DNA of 64,000 nt from Gammaproteobacteria bacterium (GCA_036381175.1 DASVDI010000006.1:47237-111236); one strand, 5' to 3'; shown: positions 5,660-57,115, counted from the first letter of the stretch. The notes: generated by a model not told the origin, from the sequence alone. Numbers and translations are program-made.

Positions 5660-7075
5660 ATGCGCGCGTTCCGCTGGCGCTCCATCAACGTGCTGGTCGT
5701 TGTCGGCTTTGCCGTGGTCGGCCTGCCGCTGGTTGCGGCCATTTTGCTGAGCACGATTTACCTGGAGCGCCTCACGCTCATCAGCCAGGCGACGGTGGTG
5801 ACGGGCATCGAAGGCACGCGTCAGGGCCGGATTCTCGGCGAGGAGCTGACGGCGATGGAACGCTACGCGCGCCAGTACGAAATCCTGCAGGAACCGGCGC
5901 TGCTTGAATTGTTCCAGCGCCGCCGCGAACGTTTCGAGGCCGCCGCCGAATCCTTGCGCGGCGTGTTCACGGATGCCGAACTCGATGCGCTGATTGCCGC
6001 GTTGCTCTCGAACTCGCGCACGCTTTCCATAGCGAACGTATCGGAAGATGCTTTCGGCGGCGTTTCGGAACGTTTCGCCACGCTGCTTGAGCAGGCGATC
6101 GCGGTGAACAACCGCGTGCGCGCGCTTACCGAGGCGCGCATGGAGGCGATGCAGACGCAATCCGAAAGCATTCAGCAACGCCTGGTATGGCAGGCGACGG
6201 GAGTGATCGTGATTGCGCTGGTGCTCGCGGTGGTTTTCACGCTGATGATTTCGCGCGCGGTGCGCCAGCTCGCCGGTGCGATCAAGCGTCTCGGCGAAGG
6301 ACGTTTCGAACACGGCATCGACGTGCGCGGCCCCGCTGATTTCGAGCAGCTTGGCGGACAGCTTGACTGGTTGCGGCGGCGGCTCCAAACGGTGGAAGAA
6401 GACAAGAGCGCATTTCTGCGCAACATCTCGCACGAACTCAAGACGCCGCTCGCAAACATTCGCGAGGGCAGCGAACTGCTGACGGATGGCGCAGCCGGCG
6501 CGCTGACGGCAGAGCAGCGCGAAGTGGCGGACATCCTGCGCGAGAACAGCCTGCGCTTGCAGTCGCAGATCGAGAACCTTCTTAACTTCAGTGCGTGGCA
6601 AAACCTGCGCACGCCGCTTCGACGCGAACCCGTGCGCCTCGATGAACTCGTGGAGCGCGTGCTCGAACGCAATCGCCTGCCGATCCACGCGCGCCAGTTG
6701 CGCGTACTTACCGATCTCAATGACGTAACGGTTGCCGGCGATCCGCAGAAACTGGAAGTGATGATCGAGAATCTTGTTTCGAATGCCGTGAAGTATTCGC
6801 CCGTGAAAGGACGCTTGCACATTCGCATCGAACGCCGCGGACGCATGGCGCGCCTGCTGGTTGCTGACGACGGCCCCGGAATCGAGCCGGATGAACGCAA
6901 GCGCGTGTTTCGCGCGTTTTACCAGGGGCGGCGGCAGGCGGAAAGCCATGTACATGGCACGGGTCTTGGTTTGTCCGTGGTGCAGGAATGCGTTCGCACG
7001 CACCGCGGCAAGGTCACCATCATTGACGGAGAAACCCATGGCGCGACTTTTCTTGTCGAACTGCCATCGAAGTGA
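5660..7075 (+). CDS. sensor histidine kinase, GlrK/QseE-like
   Basis: Two TM segments flank a ~150-aa periplasmic region, followed by HAMP, an H-box (SHELKTPL) and an HATPase_c domain (G-boxes DDGPGI, GTGLGLS). It is the first gene of an HK-lipoprotein-sigma54 RR triad. Start chosen at MRAFRW after an AAGGGG RBS. Confidence 0.85.
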   Translation: MRAFRWRSINVLVVVGFAVVGLPLVAAILLSTIYLERLTLISQATVVTGIEGTRQGRILGEELTAMERYARQYEILQEPALLELFQRRRERFEAAAESLRGVFTDAELDALIAALLSNSRTLSIANVSEDAFGGVSERFATLLEQAIAVNNRVRALTEARMEAMQTQSESIQQRLVWQATGVIVIALVLAVVFTLMISRAVRQLAGAIKRLGEGRFEHGIDVRGPADFEQLGGQLDWLRRRLQTVEEDKSAFLRNISHELKTPLANIREGSELLTDGAAGALTAEQREVADILRENSLRLQSQIENLLNFSAWQNLRTPLRREPVRLDELVERVLERNRLPIHARQLRVLTDLNDVTVAGDPQKLEVMIENLVSNAVKYSPVKGRLHIRIERRGRMARLLVADDGPGIEPDERKRVFRAFYQGRRQAESHVHGTGLGLSVVQECVRTHRGKVTIIDGETHGATFLVELPSK

Positions 7076-12072: not shown

Positions 12073-12579
12073 ATGATGAAGATTCCAGGACTATTGCTGC
12101 TGGCCGGCCTGCTTTGTGCCGGGAACGCGCTTGCGGAAAATGAAATCGGCGATCCCGTGGATTTCGAAAAGTATGACGCCAACGAAGACGGCTACCTGAC
12201 GGAAACCGAATGGTCGGAGGTGCCGGTTCGCGTCGAGTTCCACGACGTGGATGTGAACCGTGATGGCCAGGTCGAGGAAGCCGAACTGTTGCAGGGCTAC
12301 CCGTGGCATGTGAATGAATTCGTTGACGAGGAGCCCTACAACGATGCCGATCCGGAAGGCTCGTTCGAGTCCTTTGACGCGAACGACGACGGCCTTCTTG
12401 ATGAGAACGAATTCACCGATGCCGGCTGGACGGACGATGACTTTGACATCCGGGATGCTGATGACGACGGTTTCCTGGATGAAAATGAAGTCAGCGACGA
12501 CTGGTTTGAAGAAGATGGCGCTGTCAGTGCTGATGACGAAGGCGCGGTGGAGGATGACGGCGGTTTGCTTGACGAATGA
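12073..12579 (+). CDS. secreted EF-hand protein (4 loops, acidic)
   Basis: Signal peptide MMKIPGLLLLAGLLCAGNALA. Loops DANEDGYLTETE, DVNRDGQVEEAE, DANDDGLLDENE and DADDDGFLDENE. RBS GAGGAG. Confidence 0.85.
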   Translation: MMKIPGLLLLAGLLCAGNALAENEIGDPVDFEKYDANEDGYLTETEWSEVPVRVEFHDVDVNRDGQVEEAELLQGYPWHVNEFVDEEPYNDADPEGSFESFDANDDGLLDENEFTDAGWTDDDFDIRDADDDGFLDENEVSDDWFEEDGAVSADDEGAVEDDGGLLDE

Positions 12580-12680
12580 GTCGGGCGGCGAAGATTGTGT
12601 GAGACCATCGTTGCGTCACTTGAGGTTTTGTGCGGCAATGCAGTCAATGGAATGAACAAAACACTTCGCAAGGATGCGTC

Positions 12681-13376
12681 ATGCCGAAACTTCTCGATAG
12701 CCTTTCCTTCCGATTCCTGCCGGGTTGCTGCCTGCTCTGCCAGAAACGCAGTGGCCGGCATCATGATCTTTGTTCCGATTGCGAACACGATTTGCCGTGG
12801 CTCGGAGTTGCGTGCACGCAATGCGCGCTGCCGGTGCCGGCGACACACCGGGGCGCTTGCGGCGATTGCCTTAAGTTGCCGCCGGTGCAGGACGCAAGCC
12901 GTGCCGTCTTTCGTTATGGCTGGCCGCTCGATTCCCTGATCCAGCGCTTCAAGTTCAATGGCGATCATGCCGCCGGACGCACGCTCGGTGAATTGTTCGC
13001 GCAAGGCGTCCGCGCAAGGACTCCGCTACCCGACTGCCTTTTGCCGGTACCGCTGCATTCGCGGCGCTTGCGTGAACGCGGTTTCAATCAATCGGAATTG
13101 CTTGCGGATTCTGTTGCGACGAAACTGGCAATGGACGTGCGAAACGATCTTGTCGAGCGCATTCGCGAGACAGCGGTGCAATCAGGCATGAATGCGGTGG
13201 CACGGCGGCGGAACGTGCGAAATGCTTTTGCGCTTTGCGCTGAACGCCTGCCGGCTCACATCGCGATTCTTGATGATGTGGTGACAACCGGCAGCACGAG
13301 TGCTGAAATCGCCAGGCTGCTGCGCCGCGCTGGCGTGAAACGGATTGAGGTGTGGGCGCTGGCGCGCGCGGTGTAG
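12681..13376 (+). CDS. comF: ComF-family protein (phosphoribosyltransferase domain with N-terminal Cys4 zinc finger)
   Basis: CxxC...CxxC pairs (CLLCQ, CSDCEHD, CTQC, CGDC) and a C-terminal PRTase motif ILDDVVTTGST. Confidence 0.8.
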   Translation: MPKLLDSLSFRFLPGCCLLCQKRSGRHHDLCSDCEHDLPWLGVACTQCALPVPATHRGACGDCLKLPPVQDASRAVFRYGWPLDSLIQRFKFNGDHAAGRTLGELFAQGVRARTPLPDCLLPVPLHSRRLRERGFNQSELLADSVATKLAMDVRNDLVERIRETAVQSGMNAVARRRNVRNAFALCAERLPAHIAILDDVVTTGSTSAEIARLLRRAGVKRIEVWALARAV

Positions 13377-19100: not shown

Positions 19101-19118
19101 TTTTTTCCTCGGCGTTGC

Positions 19119-19196
19119 GTAGCCCGGATGAAGCGCAGCGGAATCCGGGAAATTGAAATGCATGACCCGGATTCCGCTGCGCTTCATCCGGGCTAC
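19119..19196. repeat. REP pair, family D (GTAGCCCGGATGAAGCGCAGCGGAATCCGGG), inverted doublet
   Basis: Two convergent copies separated by ~16 bp. A single related copy occurs at 57085..57115. Confidence 0.8.
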
Positions 19197-19199
19197 AAC

Positions 19200-45620: not shown

Positions 45621-45863
45621 GGCGAAGCTCCTCGATATCTATTGTTGATGGTTGTCGGCCAAAGGTGCCGGCAATCCGGTTGGCCGTAATTCCACAATAT
45701 ACAGGGTATAGCACCCGGCGAGGCGCCGGGGCAAGGCGAGCAATCCGGGAAAAATCGTGAGGAAACAACCGCTTCGCGGCGAAAACGCGCCGCGGCCCAC
45801 CTTTAACCGGAAACTGGCGATCGCTACACTTCGCCGCTTCCAACGAAGCCCTTGCGATCACTG

Positions 45864-46547
45864 ATGCATACACTCCGACTTGTCACGCTGGATCTCGACG
45901 ACACGCTCTGGGCGATCGCGCCGGTCATCGCGCGCGCGGAAAACGTGTTGCACGGCTGGTTGACGGAAAATTGCCCGGCCACCGCCAGCCAGTTCTCGCC
46001 ACAGGACCTGCGCGCGTTGCGCCAGGACGTCGAGAAACTGCACCCGGAGCTTGGCGACGACATCACCGCCCTGCGCCGCCAGTCCATTCTTCTCGCCCTT
46101 CAACGCGGCGGCGATGACGAAGCGCTGGCCGACGCCGCTTTCGATGCCTTCTGGAGCGCACGTAATACTGTTGATTGCTTCGAGGACGTGTTCCCTGCGC
46201 TTGCCCGCCTGAAATCGAAGTTCCTTGTTGCAGCGATCACCAATGGCAACGCCTGCGTGAAAACGGCGGGTCTTGGGGAGTACTTCGATTTCACGCTTTC
46301 CGCACGCGACGCCGGTTGCGCGAAACCCGGCCGGGAAATATTCCGCCAGGCCTGCAAATTCGCGGGCGTCCAGCCGCACGAAACCCTGCACGCGGGCGAT
46401 GACATCGACTGCGACGTGCGTGGCGCACTCGCCGCCGGCATGCACGCCGCCTGGATTCACCGCGACACCCGCGTGACACGCCTGCTCGCCCCGCCCGCCC
46501 TCACCTTCCCCGATCTCACCGCACTCGCGGATCACCTCGCCGCCTGA
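45864..46547 (+). CDS. HAD-superfamily hydrolase
   Basis: Motif I is LDLDDTLW, motif II is AITNG and motif IV is GDDIDCDV. Confidence 0.8.
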   Translation: MHTLRLVTLDLDDTLWAIAPVIARAENVLHGWLTENCPATASQFSPQDLRALRQDVEKLHPELGDDITALRRQSILLALQRGGDDEALADAAFDAFWSARNTVDCFEDVFPALARLKSKFLVAAITNGNACVKTAGLGEYFDFTLSARDAGCAKPGREIFRQACKFAGVQPHETLHAGDDIDCDVRGALAAGMHAAWIHRDTRVTRLLAPPALTFPDLTALADHLAA

Positions 46548-46562
46548 ACGCGACCCGCGTCG

Positions 46563-46676
46563 CAAAATCCGGCAAAACCTGAACGAATCGTAGAAACAAG
46601 CCGCGTAGCCTGACCCTCCCCGCGGCGCCATCGCGCATGCCGCACGGAACGACACAAATCCCAAGGAGGGAATGTC
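46563..46676 (+). promoter_or_regulatory. conserved leader, copy 1 (promoter-like blocks plus putative anti-SD hairpin)
   Basis: ~115 nt that align with 48862..48974. Shared features are CTGAAC-N19-CGTA blocks, and CCCTCC (46614..46619) complementary to the RBS GGAGGG (46665..46670) with a nested GCGGC/GCCGC stem. Confidence 0.45.
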
Positions 46677-48710
46677 ATGCATATCAAATCACCCGTCCGC
46701 CTCGTGGCGGTAATTATCTCTTCCATATTGCTCACAGCGTGTGGTGGTGGCGGAACCACCCCACCGCCTCCCGGCGGCACCAACCCGCCGGCGCCGGGTG
46801 GAACAACGCCCCCACCGGCAAATCCCTCGCCAACAGTTACCGTTGTCGAAACCGGCCCCGTCATGGAGCTGACCTCCGTCACACTCACCGCGACCGTCAA
46901 GGATGCGGACGGCGACTTGGCCTACACCTGGACGCAAACTGCCGGCACACCGGTAGCGCTCACCGGCGGCGACAGCGCCGAACTTTCCTTCACTGCACCA
47001 AAAACAAGAAACAGCGAAACACTAGCCTTCGAAGTCACCGTGAATGACGGTGAAGCAACGGCGACAACCAGCACAGAAGTCATCGTCGAAGAAGCGAACG
47101 GCGTGGTGTACTCGGGAATCGAAGAAACAGCCAGAATCGAGCACGTTTACTTCCATCATCCTGGGTTAGAAACGCCGCGCAAACTGAACCCGAATCTTGA
47201 TTCAACCAATCATGAATTCAGCTCTGCATCCCCGATCTACCTGCTGCCCGATCACAAACATGTCATTTACAAGTACGGCATTCGACTGGAAGACGGCTCC
47301 AACACGTTTAATTTATATAGAGCAGCACTGGATGGTAGCGACGAAACCGACATCACCGGCGACATTGTCGAGAACGGTGCAATAGCCGCCATCAAGCTGT
47401 CGCCCGATGGCAAGTGGCTGGCGTTGACGGGCGATCTGGAAACGGACGAAAAGCGCGAGCTATTTGTCATGCCTGTGGATGGCAGCGAACCACGCCGCAA
47501 GATTTCCGGAGGTGCATCGACTGAGAATGGCGATGTTTCTGCAGACCACTTCTACTGGTCGCCCGACAGCACGCAGTTGTTGTTCGGTGGTGATATAAAC
47601 ATCGATGAACGCTACGAGGTGTTCGTTGCGAATATTTCCGAGAGCAATCCGCTACGGATCTCGGCTGAAGGAATAGCACAGAACAACGCCAACCTCTTCA
47701 TAGACGTTGTAGAAGGGACGCCATTCGCGTGGTCGCCGGATGGCGAATACATCACATTCATCGAACAAGCAAACGTCGATGCACCGGTAGAGCTCACCGC
47801 CGCAAAACGGGACGGTAGCAACCGCGATATGGTTATGAACAACGATCCATCGCAGAGATTGAAGTTCGAGTGGTCAAATCAAGGAAAACTCGCGTTTATC
47901 TTCGGGATAGAAGATGAATGGGAAGACCTTTTTATCTACGATCCTGCCACTGGTTTCGATGTTTGGGTCGGAGGTGCAAGGGCCATCGTGAACGAAAGTG
48001 GCATCGGGATCGGAAAAGTACGCAAGTTCCAATGGTCATCCGACGGCGAATCCCTCGCGTTCACGCTGGAGCGCAGCATCACGAATATCGGTGTCTTCGT
48101 AGTCCCTGCTGGTGCCATCAGCCCTGATGATCGCGTTCGTATCGATGGTGAGACTGACGAAGCGGCAAGCGTTGCAAATTTCGCGCCTGACGTGAGCTGG
48201 CTTCCAGATAACCGCCGTTTTCTGTTCACAAAGCGTATAGCGGGTCTGGAGCGCCTTTACGCCAATGGCATTGAAGGCACTCCGCCTACCGATATCTCCG
48301 GAGAATTCGCAGGCATCACCTCTGGCGTTACCTCCTCCTACTGCACATCGCCCGACGGCGAATACATAATATTTAACGCCGATATCGCCGGAGACGGCAA
48401 CTCACATCTCTATCGTGCGAGAACGGACGGTACCGAACGGCGCACCGTAACCGGCGATATCATCCATGCTGACGGAATCGAAACAACCTTTAGAAATGGC
48501 AGTTGCTGGTCGCCCGATGGGACACAGGTACTATTTGAGGGCGATCTGGAGCAGAACGGATTCGGTCAGTTATTCGCCGTTCCTGGCGACAGCACTGATG
48601 GACGGGATCGCATCCGCGTTTCCAACCTTTTGGAAACAGACGGTAATGCAGATGGATTTCCTGACGGTCGATGGACAGAAGCCGTCTGGGTCGGACCAGA
48701 TGCCAAGTAG
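46677..48710 (+). CDS. lipoprotein: Pro/Thr linker, PKD/Ig-like domain, PD40 (TolB-like) beta-propeller
   Basis: Lipobox LLTACGGGG. TPPPPGGTNPPAPGGTTPPP linker. A PKD-like segment (TLTATVKDADGDLAYTWTQTAG). Repeated PD40 motifs include LSPDGKWLA, WSPDSTQLLF, WSPDGEYITF, WSSDGESLAF, TSPDGEYIIF and WSPDGTQVLF. Confidence 0.75.
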   Translation: MHIKSPVRLVAVIISSILLTACGGGGTTPPPPGGTNPPAPGGTTPPPANPSPTVTVVETGPVMELTSVTLTATVKDADGDLAYTWTQTAGTPVALTGGDSAELSFTAPKTRNSETLAFEVTVNDGEATATTSTEVIVEEANGVVYSGIEETARIEHVYFHHPGLETPRKLNPNLDSTNHEFSSASPIYLLPDHKHVIYKYGIRLEDGSNTFNLYRAALDGSDETDITGDIVENGAIAAIKLSPDGKWLALTGDLETDEKRELFVMPVDGSEPRRKISGGASTENGDVSADHFYWSPDSTQLLFGGDINIDERYEVFVANISESNPLRISAEGIAQNNANLFIDVVEGTPFAWSPDGEYITFIEQANVDAPVELTAAKRDGSNRDMVMNNDPSQRLKFEWSNQGKLAFIFGIEDEWEDLFIYDPATGFDVWVGGARAIVNESGIGIGKVRKFQWSSDGESLAFTLERSITNIGVFVVPAGAISPDDRVRIDGETDEAASVANFAPDVSWLPDNRRFLFTKRIAGLERLYANGIEGTPPTDISGEFAGITSGVTSSYCTSPDGEYIIFNADIAGDGNSHLYRARTDGTERRTVTGDIIHADGIETTFRNGSCWSPDGTQVLFEGDLEQNGFGQLFAVPGDSTDGRDRIRVSNLLETDGNADGFPDGRWTEAVWVGPDAK

Positions 48711-48721
48711 CTTCAGATAGC

Positions 48722-48757
48722 AAAAAAAAACGCCCGGCTCGCCGGGCGTTTTTTTTT
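48722..48757. terminator. bidirectional rho-independent terminator
   Basis: A9-CGCCCGGC-TC-GCCGGGCG-T9. Confidence 0.8.
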
Positions 48758-48797
48758 GCAGCAAAGACCGGTGCTTCATCGTGCAAAACGAAGCGAT

Positions 48798-48823
48798 GTA
48801 GGAGCGGCATCCTGCCGCGAATC
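48798..48823. repeat. REP, family C single copy (GTAGGAGCGGCATCCTGCCGCGAAT)
   Basis: Same core as the inverted pair at 55354..55410. Confidence 0.7.
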
Positions 48824-48861
48824 TTCACAAAACTCTCGCGGCTCTGCGCACGATCAACCAC

Positions 48862-48974
48862 CAAAAATCCGGAAAACCCTGAACGGCACCGCCAGAAACT
48901 CTCCGTATGCTGACCCTCCCGGCGGCGCTGCCGCGCATGCCGCACGGAACGACACAACCCACGGAGGGATTGTC
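48862..48974 (+). promoter_or_regulatory. conserved leader, copy 2
   Basis: Aligns with 46563..46676. CTGAAC at 48879, CGTA at 48904, CCCTCC at 48914..48919 and GGAGGG at 48963..48968. Confidence 0.45.
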
Positions 48975-50792
48975 ATGCATACGAAAATACCGGCCCGCCT
49001 TGTGGCGGTAATTCTTTCTTCTTTATTGTTTACGGCTTGTGGTGGCGGAGGTGGCGGCAACACGTTGCCTGTGGCGAATGCCGGTACCGATCAGGCGGTC
49101 GACGACAACACAACGGTAACGCTTGATGCATCCGCATCAACTAACACGGACGGGGGCACCTTGACCTACGCCTGGGCACAATCGTCAGGGCCGTCCGTGA
49201 CACTCTCGGATCCAAGCGCCGAGAAGCCGACATTTGTCGCACCGGTCATCAGTGGAGGTACATCGCTGACATTCGACGTTACGGTAAGCGATGCCTCTGA
49301 TGCGAGCGATACCGATTCCGTAACCATCACCGTCAATGACGTCACGCCTGCTGTCGCGACATTGGCGCCGGATTACACGGCCAGCACACCGATCACCTGG
49401 ACCTTCAACGAATCCATGGATCCCGAATCGCTGCAACTGAGCGGCACGCTTGCCGCTCTTGGCGATGGCGGCGCCTGGTCCACGACAAACGTTGAAAACG
49501 ACACGCTTGCGCTTTCGCCGGTGGACGCAACATCACTGACGTCCGGTTGGGAAAGCGGCGTGCAGACTGTCGGGTTCACTGTGGCGGACACCCGCGGGAA
49601 TGTAACGACAGTGATCGACTACCCGCTGCAGATTCGGCTCGTGTTCGAAAATTTCCAGCCCGCCGAAAATGTCATCGGGCAACTGGATTTCGTCTCGGGA
49701 GAAAAACATCGGGGCGGGGCCGCGAAGAACGGAACATTTGCCGGACCACATGGCAACGCGGGCTATGACGCTGTCACGGGCCTGCTCTTCCTCACGGACT
49801 ACGAAGCCGAGCGCGTGCTCGCCTACTCAGGTATTCCCGCTGTAGATGGCGCCGATGCCGTATTCGTTGTCGGGCAGCCTGATTTCACCACCGTGGACTC
49901 ACGTCCGGTGAGCGCGACGTCCTTTTCAGGGCCAGGTTCGACGCAATCATATGAAGGCCGGCTCGTCGTCGCGGACAACGAGCATAGCCGGATCGTCATT
50001 TACGACAACCTGCCGTCATTGCTCAGTGGCAGTCCCGCCGTCATCGGTACTGTCCTCGGACAGAACTCGCTGGATTCCGACAATGCCGCGTGTTCGCAGA
50101 TGGGCCTGAGTGCGCCGGTTGCGCAACATATAACACCGGACGGCAAGCTGATTGTCGCGGATATCGACAATCACCGCGTGATGATCTGGAACACGTTACC
50201 GGAAGCCGGCCAACATGGCGCACCGGCGGATATCGTGCTCGGGCAAGAGAATTTCGATACGTGTGAATCCAATAGAGGGCTGGATGTACCGTCAGCGGAA
50301 AGTCTTTCTTATCCCTCGGGCATATGGAGCGATGGCCAACGGTTGGTCGTGCTTGATTACAACAACAGAGCGCTTCTCTGGAACGTATTCCCGACCGAAT
50401 CCGGGCAAGCAGCTGATCACGTCATTGGTCAGAAGGATTTCACATTGATGGCAGAAAATGATGGCGATGGTGACGGCACGGCGGATGAAATGCCCTCGCC
50501 GCGCACTCTCTCCGGCCCTTATGTCGGCGTCCATTCAAACGGAGTACAGCTTTTCATTACGGATTCGGAAAACAACCGCGTGCTGATCTGGAACAATTTT
50601 CCGACTCAGGATTTTCAACTCGCGGATGCCGTATTGGGACAACCTGACTTCGTCAGTTCGAGTAGGAATCTTGGCGAGACCACTCCAACAGCCAGCAGCC
50701 TGAATTTTCCCAGCGGGGTGATGACAATACGCAACAAGCTTGTCATTTCGGATTACGAGAATTCGCGGTTCCTGGTGTTCGAATCACGGTAG
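48975..50792 (+). CDS. lipoprotein: PKD/Ig-like domains plus six-bladed NHL-type beta-propeller
   Basis: Start at MHTKIPARLVAVILSSLLFTACGGGGGG, which parallels the N-terminus of the upstream paralog. PKD-like segment VANAGTDQAVDDNTTVTLDASAS. Six blades with the xDxxNxRVLxW pattern: TDYEAERVLAY, ADNEHSRIVIY, ADIDNHRVMIW, LDYNNRALLW, TDSENNRVLIW and SDYENSRFLVF. Confidence 0.75.
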   Translation: MHTKIPARLVAVILSSLLFTACGGGGGGNTLPVANAGTDQAVDDNTTVTLDASASTNTDGGTLTYAWAQSSGPSVTLSDPSAEKPTFVAPVISGGTSLTFDVTVSDASDASDTDSVTITVNDVTPAVATLAPDYTASTPITWTFNESMDPESLQLSGTLAALGDGGAWSTTNVENDTLALSPVDATSLTSGWESGVQTVGFTVADTRGNVTTVIDYPLQIRLVFENFQPAENVIGQLDFVSGEKHRGGAAKNGTFAGPHGNAGYDAVTGLLFLTDYEAERVLAYSGIPAVDGADAVFVVGQPDFTTVDSRPVSATSFSGPGSTQSYEGRLVVADNEHSRIVIYDNLPSLLSGSPAVIGTVLGQNSLDSDNAACSQMGLSAPVAQHITPDGKLIVADIDNHRVMIWNTLPEAGQHGAPADIVLGQENFDTCESNRGLDVPSAESLSYPSGIWSDGQRLVVLDYNNRALLWNVFPTESGQAADHVIGQKDFTLMAENDGDGDGTADEMPSPRTLSGPYVGVHSNGVQLFITDSENNRVLIWNNFPTQDFQLADAVLGQPDFVSSSRNLGETTPTASSLNFPSGVMTIRNKLVISDYENSRFLVFESR

Positions 50793-50821: not shown

Positions 50822-50847
50822 AACCGCCCCTTCGGGGCGGTTTTTTA
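50822..50847 (+). terminator. rho-independent terminator
   Basis: AACCGCCCC-TTCG-GGGCGGTT followed by TTTTAT. Confidence 0.85.
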
Positions 50848-55326: not shown

Positions 55327-55353
55327 CACGCATCACCCAGTGGTCGAAGACAT

Positions 55354-55410
55354 GTGGGAGCGGCATCCTGCCGCGAATATCGAAAAATCGCGGCAGGATA
55401 CCGCTCCCAC
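55354..55410. repeat. REP pair, family C (GTGGGAGCGGCATCCTGCCGCGAAT), inverted doublet
   Basis: GTGGGAGCGGCATCCTGCCGCGAAT...ATCGCGGCAGGATACCGCTCCCAC. Confidence 0.8.
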
Positions 55411-55473
55411 AGAACGTCGATAACCATCGTCTCGCGCCTCCCGGTGTAAGATGTTGAAAACCCGCCTCGCATT

Positions 55474-57038: not shown

Positions 57039-57115
57039 GTTGGTGTGAGCGCCGCGAACCCCCAACAATTTGTCGCGGTCTGTTCCCGGATTTCGCTCCG
57101 CTCTATCCGGGCTAC
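57035..57115. repeat. REP family A copy (57035..57066) followed by a family D copy (57085..57115)
   Basis: GTAGGTTGGTGTGAGCGCCGCGAACCCCCAAC, then CCCGGATTTCGCTCCGCTCTATCCGGGCTAC. Confidence 0.75.

Follow-up and report, generated by a model that had tools for sequence, protein, structure and literature searches.

A conserved promoter-like, leader and signal-peptide module in front of different PKD/β-propeller lipoprotein genes of uncultured Gammaproteobacteria

Introduction

The pair GAAC...CGT is the hallmark of promoters read by extracytoplasmic function (ECF) sigma factors; the SigW promoter of Bacillus subtilis, for example, is TGAAAC-N16-CGTA. A shared front end on unlike genes is known from the vlp, vsp and vsa loci of Mycoplasma, which are plastic and consist of tandem genes where a conserved promoter, 5′ untranslated region (UTR) and prolipoprotein signal are attached to divergent mature regions. 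The promoter of Acinetobacter SigAb is GTCAAC-N17-CGTT, and a spacer of 18 nucleotides costs about 3-fold activity; A/T runs located 5′ of the −35 element serve as UP elements and contribute strongly at ECF promoters (PMC12153292; see also PMC3326320). The RpoE-type sites of Shewanella are GAAC-N17-GTC (PMC4336711). Here, I describe a 64,000-nucleotide stretch from a Gammaproteobacteria bacterium (GCA_036381175.1, DASVDI010000006.1:47237-111236; hereafter the window, with positions counted from its first letter). Two neighbouring lipoprotein genes of the window, gene A and gene B, begin with a common sequence of about 190 bp, here called the module. In a preliminary description, the two genes were proposed to be co-regulated through a shared ECF-like promoter and/or a translational control element in the leader. 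The analysis makes it fairly probable that the module is a 5′ expression-and-export unit kept by purifying selection before different PKD/β-propeller lipoprotein genes, which it co-regulates.

Results

Two copies of a 5′ module in the window

It was found that positions 46564–46753 (copy A) and 48864–49051 (copy B), both on the plus strand, are homologous, with 79.7% identity over 192 nucleotides (blastn, E 3e-41). MAFFT alignment and repeat detection (D1/D3/D12) concur with blastn, and nhmmer profiles recover copy A at 46564–46750 (E 1e-56) and copy B at 48864–49048 (E 1e-58). The reported likeness of the two upstream regions is thus real. The edges of the similarity are sharp. The 5′ edge is AAAATCCGG (46564–46572 in copy A and 48864–48872 in copy B), and the 3′ edge is the run of poly-Gly codons after the lipobox Cys. 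From AAAATCCGG, the similarity runs through GAACG-N18-CGTA, CTGACCCTCCC and a GGAGGG Shine-Dalgarno (SD) sequence into the lipoprotein signal peptide, so that each copy contains a promoter-like region, a 5′ UTR and signal-peptide codons up to the Gly linker. Over the first 26 codons (signal peptide, lipobox Cys22 and GGGG), copies A and B are about 78% identical in DNA, in line with the earlier remark that the first 25 or so codons are conserved. No third copy was found in the 64-kb window by blastn or with nhmmer profiles.

Do other genomes have the module? Homologues of both lipoproteins, together with those of the fadD-like neighbour, led to related loci, and two other genomes were found to carry the module. 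In L002 (JGI Ga0299914_10000082), a full module lies at 13001–13187 ahead of a second PD40 paralogue (P0005; the gene is called g2). In L004 (NCBI GCA_036375775.1), a full module lies at 1542–1727, directly after the HAD gene and ahead of the positional orthologue of gene A. The comparison below is based on these four copies from three genomes (winA and winB for copies A and B in the window, L002 g2, and L004). The signal peptide was seen in 4/236 homologue N-termini (P0001, P0117, P0005 and P0003). P0028 has a similar N-terminus, but its upstream region is unrelated and it was rejected as a module carrier. Searching for the pattern AAATCCGG-N5-CC-N-GAACG-N18-CGTA gave three matches in the GTDB species genomes, all of them chance hits in unrelated phyla, and five in the JGI metagenomes, where the sole real one is the known L002 contig. 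As a check for mobile elements, plasmid and phage collections were also searched and gave no module match. The host clade is a small group of uncultured (soil) Gammaproteobacteria, and the module-bearing lineage is barely represented in the scanned collections.

Fixed blocks and a free spacer

In all four copies, the upstream architecture is AAAATCCGG-N7-(T/C)GAACG, exactly 18 nucleotides, and CGTA-NN-CTGA-N-CCTCCC; further shared blocks are GGAGGGA-NTG-N-CATG around the start codon and the signal peptide. In copy A, the upstream block AAAATCCGG-CAAAACC-TGAACG (46564–46585), invariant in 4/4 copies, has phased A-tracts and ends in a −35-like GAACG (46581–46585). The 18-nucleotide spacer (46586–46603) has the same length as in the other copies and a sequence unrelated to theirs. 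It is followed at 46604–46621 by a −10-like CGTA (46604–46607) and then NN-CTGA-CCCTCC(CC), as aligned over the four copies. The CCCTCC (46614–46619) is a candidate anti-SD sequence or a discriminator/operator. In the predicted minimum free energy (MFE) fold, an inner GC hairpin (46622–46643) pairs GCGGC (46622–46626) with GCCGC (46639–46643). The SD sequence GGAGGG (46665–46670) and the ATG at 46677 complete the leader (46665–46679 for this part), and this start fits the deposited 677-residue protein (P0001). The corresponding positions in copy B are GAACG 48881–48885, CGTA 48904–48907, CCCTCC 48914–48919, GCGGC/GCCGC 48922–48926/48939–48943, GGAGGG 48963–48968, ATG 48975 and the lipobox Cys codon 49038–49040, all on the plus strand.

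The spacing GAACG-N18-CGTA, which is the GAAC-N19-CGTA noticed earlier in both window copies, is equal in 4/4 copies. The spacers of copies A and B are identical at 5/18 positions and the flanking blocks at 35/40 (Fisher p = 1.3e-5), so that the pattern of conserved blocks and a variable spacer, expected of −35/−10 elements, is real. Conservation extends about 13–17 nucleotides past the −10-like CGTA. Two conserved blocks, set at a constant distance around a spacer whose sequence may vary, read as the classic signature of bipartite promoter recognition, and the phased upstream A-tracts resemble UP elements. A bidirectional intrinsic terminator, consisting of a 19-nucleotide perfect inverted repeat with A/T runs, lies between gene A and module B (48720–48759). 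Because of this strong terminator, gene B needs a promoter of its own. An upstream open reading frame (ORF) beginning at an ATG inside GCGCATGCC was considered and rejected, since its frame is not conserved and the ATG is absent in L004.

Conservation above the neutral level

The flanking fadD, HAD and hemE genes are 72–87% identical in DNA to those of the window. Their 4-fold degenerate sites, taken as the neutral baseline, are 49–62% identical in L002 and L004 and 59–74% in L006, which lacks the module. The promoter part of winB is 91% identical to that of L004 and 86% identical to that of L002 g2, each above neutral (binomial p ~1.7e-5), and winA and winB share 66% within one genome. The mature proteins have 31–43% amino acid identity or belong to another propeller class, and the module is more conserved than its own gene bodies. 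Since promoter identity exceeds the neutral level and the mature proteins are far diverged, the copies are of old origin, and purifying selection acts on the module. The scenario named as fatal to the proposal of co-regulation, a leader similarity left over from a recent duplication, is excluded by the promoter identities, 66% within the window versus 86–91% between genomes.

The genes behind the module

Gene A (46677–48710, plus strand) encodes a 677-residue lipoprotein and gene B (48975–50792, plus strand) one of 605 residues. They match the proteins VF275_01240 (NCBI) and VF275_01245 of the metagenome-assembled genome (MAG) at 100%, and both of these are deposited as hypothetical proteins. 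The MAG has a further NHL paralogue, P0170, whose place in the genome could not be found. According to Pfam, the product of gene A has a signal peptide, the lipobox LTAC (Cys22), a Gly/Pro linker, a K319L-like PKD domain and a PD40/DPPIV_N-type β-propeller. The product of gene B has a signal peptide, the lipobox FTAC, a K319L-like PKD domain, Big_5 and an NHL-repeat β-propeller. The gene bodies therefore differ as had been described, and the two proteins can be aligned solely over the signal peptide/N-terminus and the PKD domain (36% over 147 residues). Judged by eye, ...SSILLTAC GGGG and ...SSLLFTAC GGGG conform to the lipobox rule [LVIF]-x-[AGS]-C, by which both products would be lipoproteins and substrates of Lgt and Lsp. 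Across the four copies, the module heads bodies of the PD40 type (gene A, L002 g2 and L004) and of the NHL type (gene B). The second gene is of the NHL type in the window and of the PD40 type in L002, and the modules of these two are 77% identical.

The leader RNA

The complementarity between CCCTCC and GGAGGG is invariant in 4/4 copies, and a single neighbouring C-to-U change retains a G-U pair. Such complementarity is uncommon as background: outside the leaders, CCTCC occurs within 85 nucleotides upstream of GGAGG at 2/49 sites in the window. When short constructs are folded, the SD–anti-SD helix is the MFE structure in all four copies; with 30 nucleotides of coding sequence added, 2/4 MFE structures lose it. 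This outer helix is invariant and hence offers no covariation. The inner hairpin appears in every copy, with its register shifted in L004 and L002, and compensatory pairs amount to 1/14. Of the four copies, copy B alone folds better than shuffled sequences, with a z of −3.7; the other three have −0.7 to −1.2. With the 30 nucleotides of coding sequence included, the predicted probability that the SD sequence is unpaired at 37 °C is 0.27–0.58, versus 0.15–0.51 in five control leaders without the module, and the predicted shift from 15 to 45 °C is at most 0.13. Rfam, searched with the whole window at the gathering threshold and with 46450–49100 at E ≤ 10, gave nothing on either leader. Weak, chance-level Rfam matches are confined to the terminator at 48720–48759. 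The interior of the UTR in L004 is 67% identical, versus 62% for the neutral level (p = 0.26).

What had been proposed was a hairpin that sequesters the ribosome-binding site, such as a thermosensor or a riboswitch. The complementarity and the inner stem do exist. As a switch the structure looks weak, with no covariation and a predicted occlusion no stronger than in the controls; it is plausible as an accessory that damps translation or stabilizes the 5′ end of the mRNA, rather than as a demonstrated switch. A thermosensor finds no support in the flat predicted accessibility of the SD sequence between 15 and 45 °C, in the CCCUCC type of anti-SD, or in Rfam, where neither the ROSE nor the fourU model matched. 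A riboswitch is unlikely: there is no Rfam match, the UTR interior of L004 has diverged to the neutral degree, and no covarying structured core was seen in the four sequences, a sample of low power. The transcription start also bears on the structure. With a −10 element of the CGTA type, the mRNA would have CCCUCC at its very 5′ terminus; with the hexamer TAnnCT as the −10 element, transcription would begin inside CCCUCC.

A variable accessory island

Together with the module, the lipoprotein genes make up a variable accessory island that is flanked by the HAD gene and by tesA (GDSL lipase). In L017 and L018/L019, whose FadD sequences are 88–89% identical, the HAD gene abuts the GDSL lipase gene without any lipoprotein gene (junctions at 6098–6215 in L017 and 7032–7037 in L018). 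L006 and L021 (FadD 92% identical in amino acids) have one PD40 lipoprotein gene, whose leader is unrelated or remotely related. A walk via FadD homologues showed that the L020 and L022 loci are rearranged. In L002, the region 12402–12850 between two intact genes consists of the promoter half of a module (12402–12436, to about −10) and an internal PD40 fragment of about 145 residues. It is a decayed third paralogue, by blastx to residues 345–482 of P0003.

Several side observations concern these loci. L016, which carries the NHL lipoprotein P0151 and belongs to the same bin as L004, has its first base within the poly-Gly codons that directly follow the lipobox. Its positions 1–30 share GGCGGCGGGGGCGGGGGC with L004 1715–1745, which may reflect an assembly break at the repeated 5′ module or low complexity. 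L021 (GCA_036375775.1, DASVBT010000494.1) has on its reverse strand a shared upstream motif, TTCCCGAGCG-N~14-TTG(A/G)(C/T)TAAGGTT(C/T)GC, that is unlike the module; it stands before two genes (at 1325 and 673), one for a 178-residue membrane protein and one for the PD40 lipoprotein. L021 and L004, in one MAG, are two versions of the locus, and the bin appears to mix two strains.

Other features of the window

Ten neighbouring ORFs were checked, all of them housekeeping genes; they include HAD, GDSL lipase, ABC/FtsX transporter, NUDIX, DUF502, 2-hydroxyacid dehydrogenase, Ogt, Ada/AlkA and M20 peptidase genes. Upstream, about 48 nucleotides of the divergent fadD/HAD intergenic region (45690–45737) are 83–86% conserved in L004 and L006. 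The hairpin GGGTATAGCACCC lies within this stretch, through which the fadD-like gene may be regulated. Downstream of gene B, a terminator-like hairpin, CCGCCCCTTCGGGGCGG, with a T-run lies at 50824–50846 (plus strand); it was read from the sequence and missed by the terminator scan.

Just 5′ of module B lies an element like repetitive extragenic palindromic (REP) sequences, GTAGGAGCGGCATCCTGCCGCGAAT (48797–48823, plus strand), of which an exact 21-mer recurs at 55357–55377 and, inverted, at 55387–55407. In the general form (T)GT(A/G)GGAGCGGCATCCTGCCGCGAAT, the element occurs at 48797–48823 (plus) and as an inverted pair at 55351–55378 (plus) and 55387–55412 (minus) after the NUDIX gene; the same element is found in an intergenic region of L002 (12321–12355). 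A second REP-like repeat, GCGTAGCCCGGATGAAGCGCAGCGGAATCCGGG, forms an inverted pair at about 19117–19198 and occurs again at about 57067–57100 (minus), with a similar sequence in L015 (3730–3765). AATCCGG has 31 sites in the window versus 12.3 expected, and the unrelated GCGTAGCCCGGATGAAGCGCAGCGGAATCCGGG repeat supplies some of this excess. The excess is not evidence of a regulon.

Discussion

The preferred explanation, in which one 5′ module co-regulates different propeller lipoprotein genes, can be divided into three parts. The promoter would consist of the phased A-tracts AAAATCCGG/AAAACCC, the −35-like GAACG, the spacer of exactly 18 nucleotides and the −10-like CGTA. The 5′ UTR, about 65–70 nucleotides long, probably has its first base at CTGACCCTCCC or close to it, and the strong GGAGGG SD sequence forms its end. 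The third part is the lipoprotein signal peptide with its lipobox and Gly linker, by which the products would be exported via the common Sec/Lgt/Lsp lipoprotein route. Since the same promoter determinants stand before both genes, most likely one regulator serves both. Candidates are an alternative sigma factor of the ECF-like kind and an activator that works at the A-tract/GAACG block. The 5′-terminal CCCUCC is able to pair with the SD sequence, and such pairing could damp or gate translation or stabilize the 5′ end of the mRNA. Co-regulation through a shared promoter, the core of the preliminary description, is well supported by conservation above the neutral level and by blocks at a fixed spacing. 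The module is lineage-specific, a real but fairly ordinary regulatory feature.

Several points weigh against this explanation. The gap in AAC-N19-CGT, the same in 4/4 copies, is 2–3 nucleotides too long for an ECF promoter (16–17 nucleotides, ±1). A phmmer search of the ORFs of the 64-kb window, with RpoE and SigW as the queries, revealed no ECF sigma or anti-sigma gene; the closest genes that were checked have housekeeping roles, and no regulator is adjacent. Predictions of the hairpin vary with the sequence context and do not set the leaders apart. Scans of whole collections left the number of distinct copies at four, so that the statistics come from few lineages. Finally, L006, among the closest relatives sampled, carries a lipoprotein homologue whose gene lacks the module, and the module is therefore dispensable for the expression of such genes.

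Which sigma factor would read the promoter? The invariant (T/C)GAACG holds the AAC of ECF −35 elements and the invariant CGTA the CGT that, like GTC, marks ECF −10 elements, each in 4/4 copies. The ECF-like blocks at rigid spacing that had been proposed are therefore present; the ECF class is not established, given the 19-nucleotide gap and with no sigma gene detected in the window by the RpoE and SigW queries, and for these two reasons the module is not filed as an ECF promoter. Sigma-54, sigma-32 and sigma-28 promoters and the RpoE2/ChrR-type motif TGATCC-N16-CGTA were rejected by eye on motif or spacing. Recognition by an alternative sigma factor or dependence on an activator is favoured over a constitutive promoter. 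One possibility, which I regard as tentative, is a sigma-70 promoter that depends on a transcription factor: the −10 hexamer would be TAnnCT, read within CGTAnnCT, AAAATCCGG...GAACG an activator site overlapping the −35 region, and CTGACCCTCCC a discriminator/operator instead of an anti-SD sequence. A-11 and T-7 of TA(G/T/A)(C/G)CT are indeed invariant in 4/4 copies, the conserved block outruns the 4-nucleotide ECF −10 element by 17 nucleotides, and the spacing does not suit an ECF promoter. A usable TTGACA-like −35 element at 16–18 nucleotides is lacking, as in class II activator-dependent promoters, and a promoter scan detected no sigma-70-type −35/−10 pair in either leader. However, no dyad or direct-repeat operator is evident besides the phasing of the A-tracts, no regulator gene is adjacent, and the GAAC...CGT pair points to ECF sigma factors. 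It is rather unlikely that the main role of the module is post-transcriptional, namely that the 5′ UTR is a switch (a thermosensor, a riboswitch, or a target of a small RNA or CsrA) in which CCCUCC occludes GGAGGG. Such a switch would explain the invariant six-nucleotide anti-SD, the SD–anti-SD helix in short constructs, the low z of copy B, the inner hairpin that persists in all copies despite sequence change, and the GGA motifs (ACGGAA and the SD sequence) about 20 nucleotides apart in 3/4 copies. It would leave unexplained the outer helix without covariation, the shifted registers of the inner hairpin with a single compensatory pair, the ordinary z of 3/4 copies, the loss of the helix from 2/4 MFE structures when coding sequence is added, and an SD accessibility that is like that of controls and almost constant with temperature. 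No Rfam family appears even at E ≤ 10, the UTR interior in L004 diverges at the neutral rate, unlike an aptamer core, and with a TAnnCT −10 element the anti-SD would be incompletely transcribed.

The remaining explanations concern the history of the locus. It is highly improbable that the similarity has no regulatory meaning and is just the fading trace of a 5′ end that was recently duplicated in tandem or gene-converted. In favour of this, the two genes are arranged in tandem and their PKD domains have about 30% amino acid identity, signal-peptide codons are often identical at synonymous sites, and the locus is dynamic, the decayed L002 paralogue keeping the promoter half alone. On the other hand, the promoters of winA and winB are less alike than those of the between-genome pairs, the module equals housekeeping coding DNA in conservation where neutral sites are 49–62% identical, the divergence within it is block-wise and not uniform, and the mature parts no longer show a recognizable resemblance, which makes the duplication an old one. 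It also seems improbable that the module is a portable recombination cassette, whose exchange at the front end and the poly-Gly/Pro linker swaps propeller bodies and thus diversifies surface lipoproteins. One module on PD40- and NHL-type genes, including second genes that differ in type between the window and L002, would fit this, as would the similarity that stops exactly at the Gly-codon run, the promoter-only scar joined to an internal PD40 fragment in L002, the absence of the island from L017 and L018, and the L016 contig that breaks in the Gly run and overlaps L004 there. That break may merely reflect low complexity, however, and the locus has no silent cassettes, invertases or inverted repeats and just two copies; a module divergence of 64–77% also speaks against frequent exchange. 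The facts of the locus allow, and do not prove, shuffling of module and body at the Gly/Pro linker. A combined form, in which a portable cassette with a long-spacer (19-nucleotide) ECF-like promoter and a 5′-terminal anti-SD gate has been recombined at Gly/Pro codons onto varied propellers, is quite improbable.

If the preferred explanation is true, AAAATCCGG-N8-GAACG-N18-CGTA is the signature of a small regulon for envelope β-propeller lipoproteins in a poorly known clade of soil Gammaproteobacteria. The scrambled spacer, together with the kept blocks and spacing, would amount to a natural "mutagenesis" that pinpoints the promoter determinants. When complete genomes become available, the signature could help to find the role of an orphan alternative sigma factor or activator. 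The module opens no new class of mechanism. If the cassette explanation were true instead, the locus would be a diversifying set of co-regulated surface lipoproteins, a functional analogue of the variable-lipoprotein loci of mycoplasmas in a Gram-negative soil bacterium.

How does the module compare with known systems? Like the group 4 ECF promoters (RpoE/AlgU GAACTT-N16/17-TCnAA, SigW and SigAb), it combines a −35-like block that includes AAC with a −10-like block that includes CGT, the distance between the two being rigid and the sequence of the spacer free; upstream lies an A-rich stretch resembling an UP element, and the putative targets are envelope (lipo)proteins. In contrast, the AAC–CGT gap is 16–17 nucleotides in those promoters and 19 in the module, the conservation of the module runs on for 13 nucleotides past the −10 element, and no cognate sigma/anti-sigma pair is seen within 64 kb. 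With SD-occluding 5′ UTRs (the ROSE and fourU elements, and 5′-terminal stabilizer hairpins such as that of the ompA leader), it has in common a conserved segment complementary to the SD sequence; given a transcription start near CTGA, this segment would be the very beginning of the mRNA. The anti-SD of ROSE and fourU is U-rich with mismatches prone to melting, whereas the CCCUCC of the module offers perfect, G-C-rich pairing without covariation. As in the vlp, vsp and vsa loci of Mycoplasma, a conserved front end is joined to divergent mature parts in tandem genes. The module differs from those loci in having two copies only and no poly-A/homopolymer tract or invertible switch; its host belongs to a Gram-negative environmental lineage, and the mature parts behind it are different fold classes instead of repeat variants.

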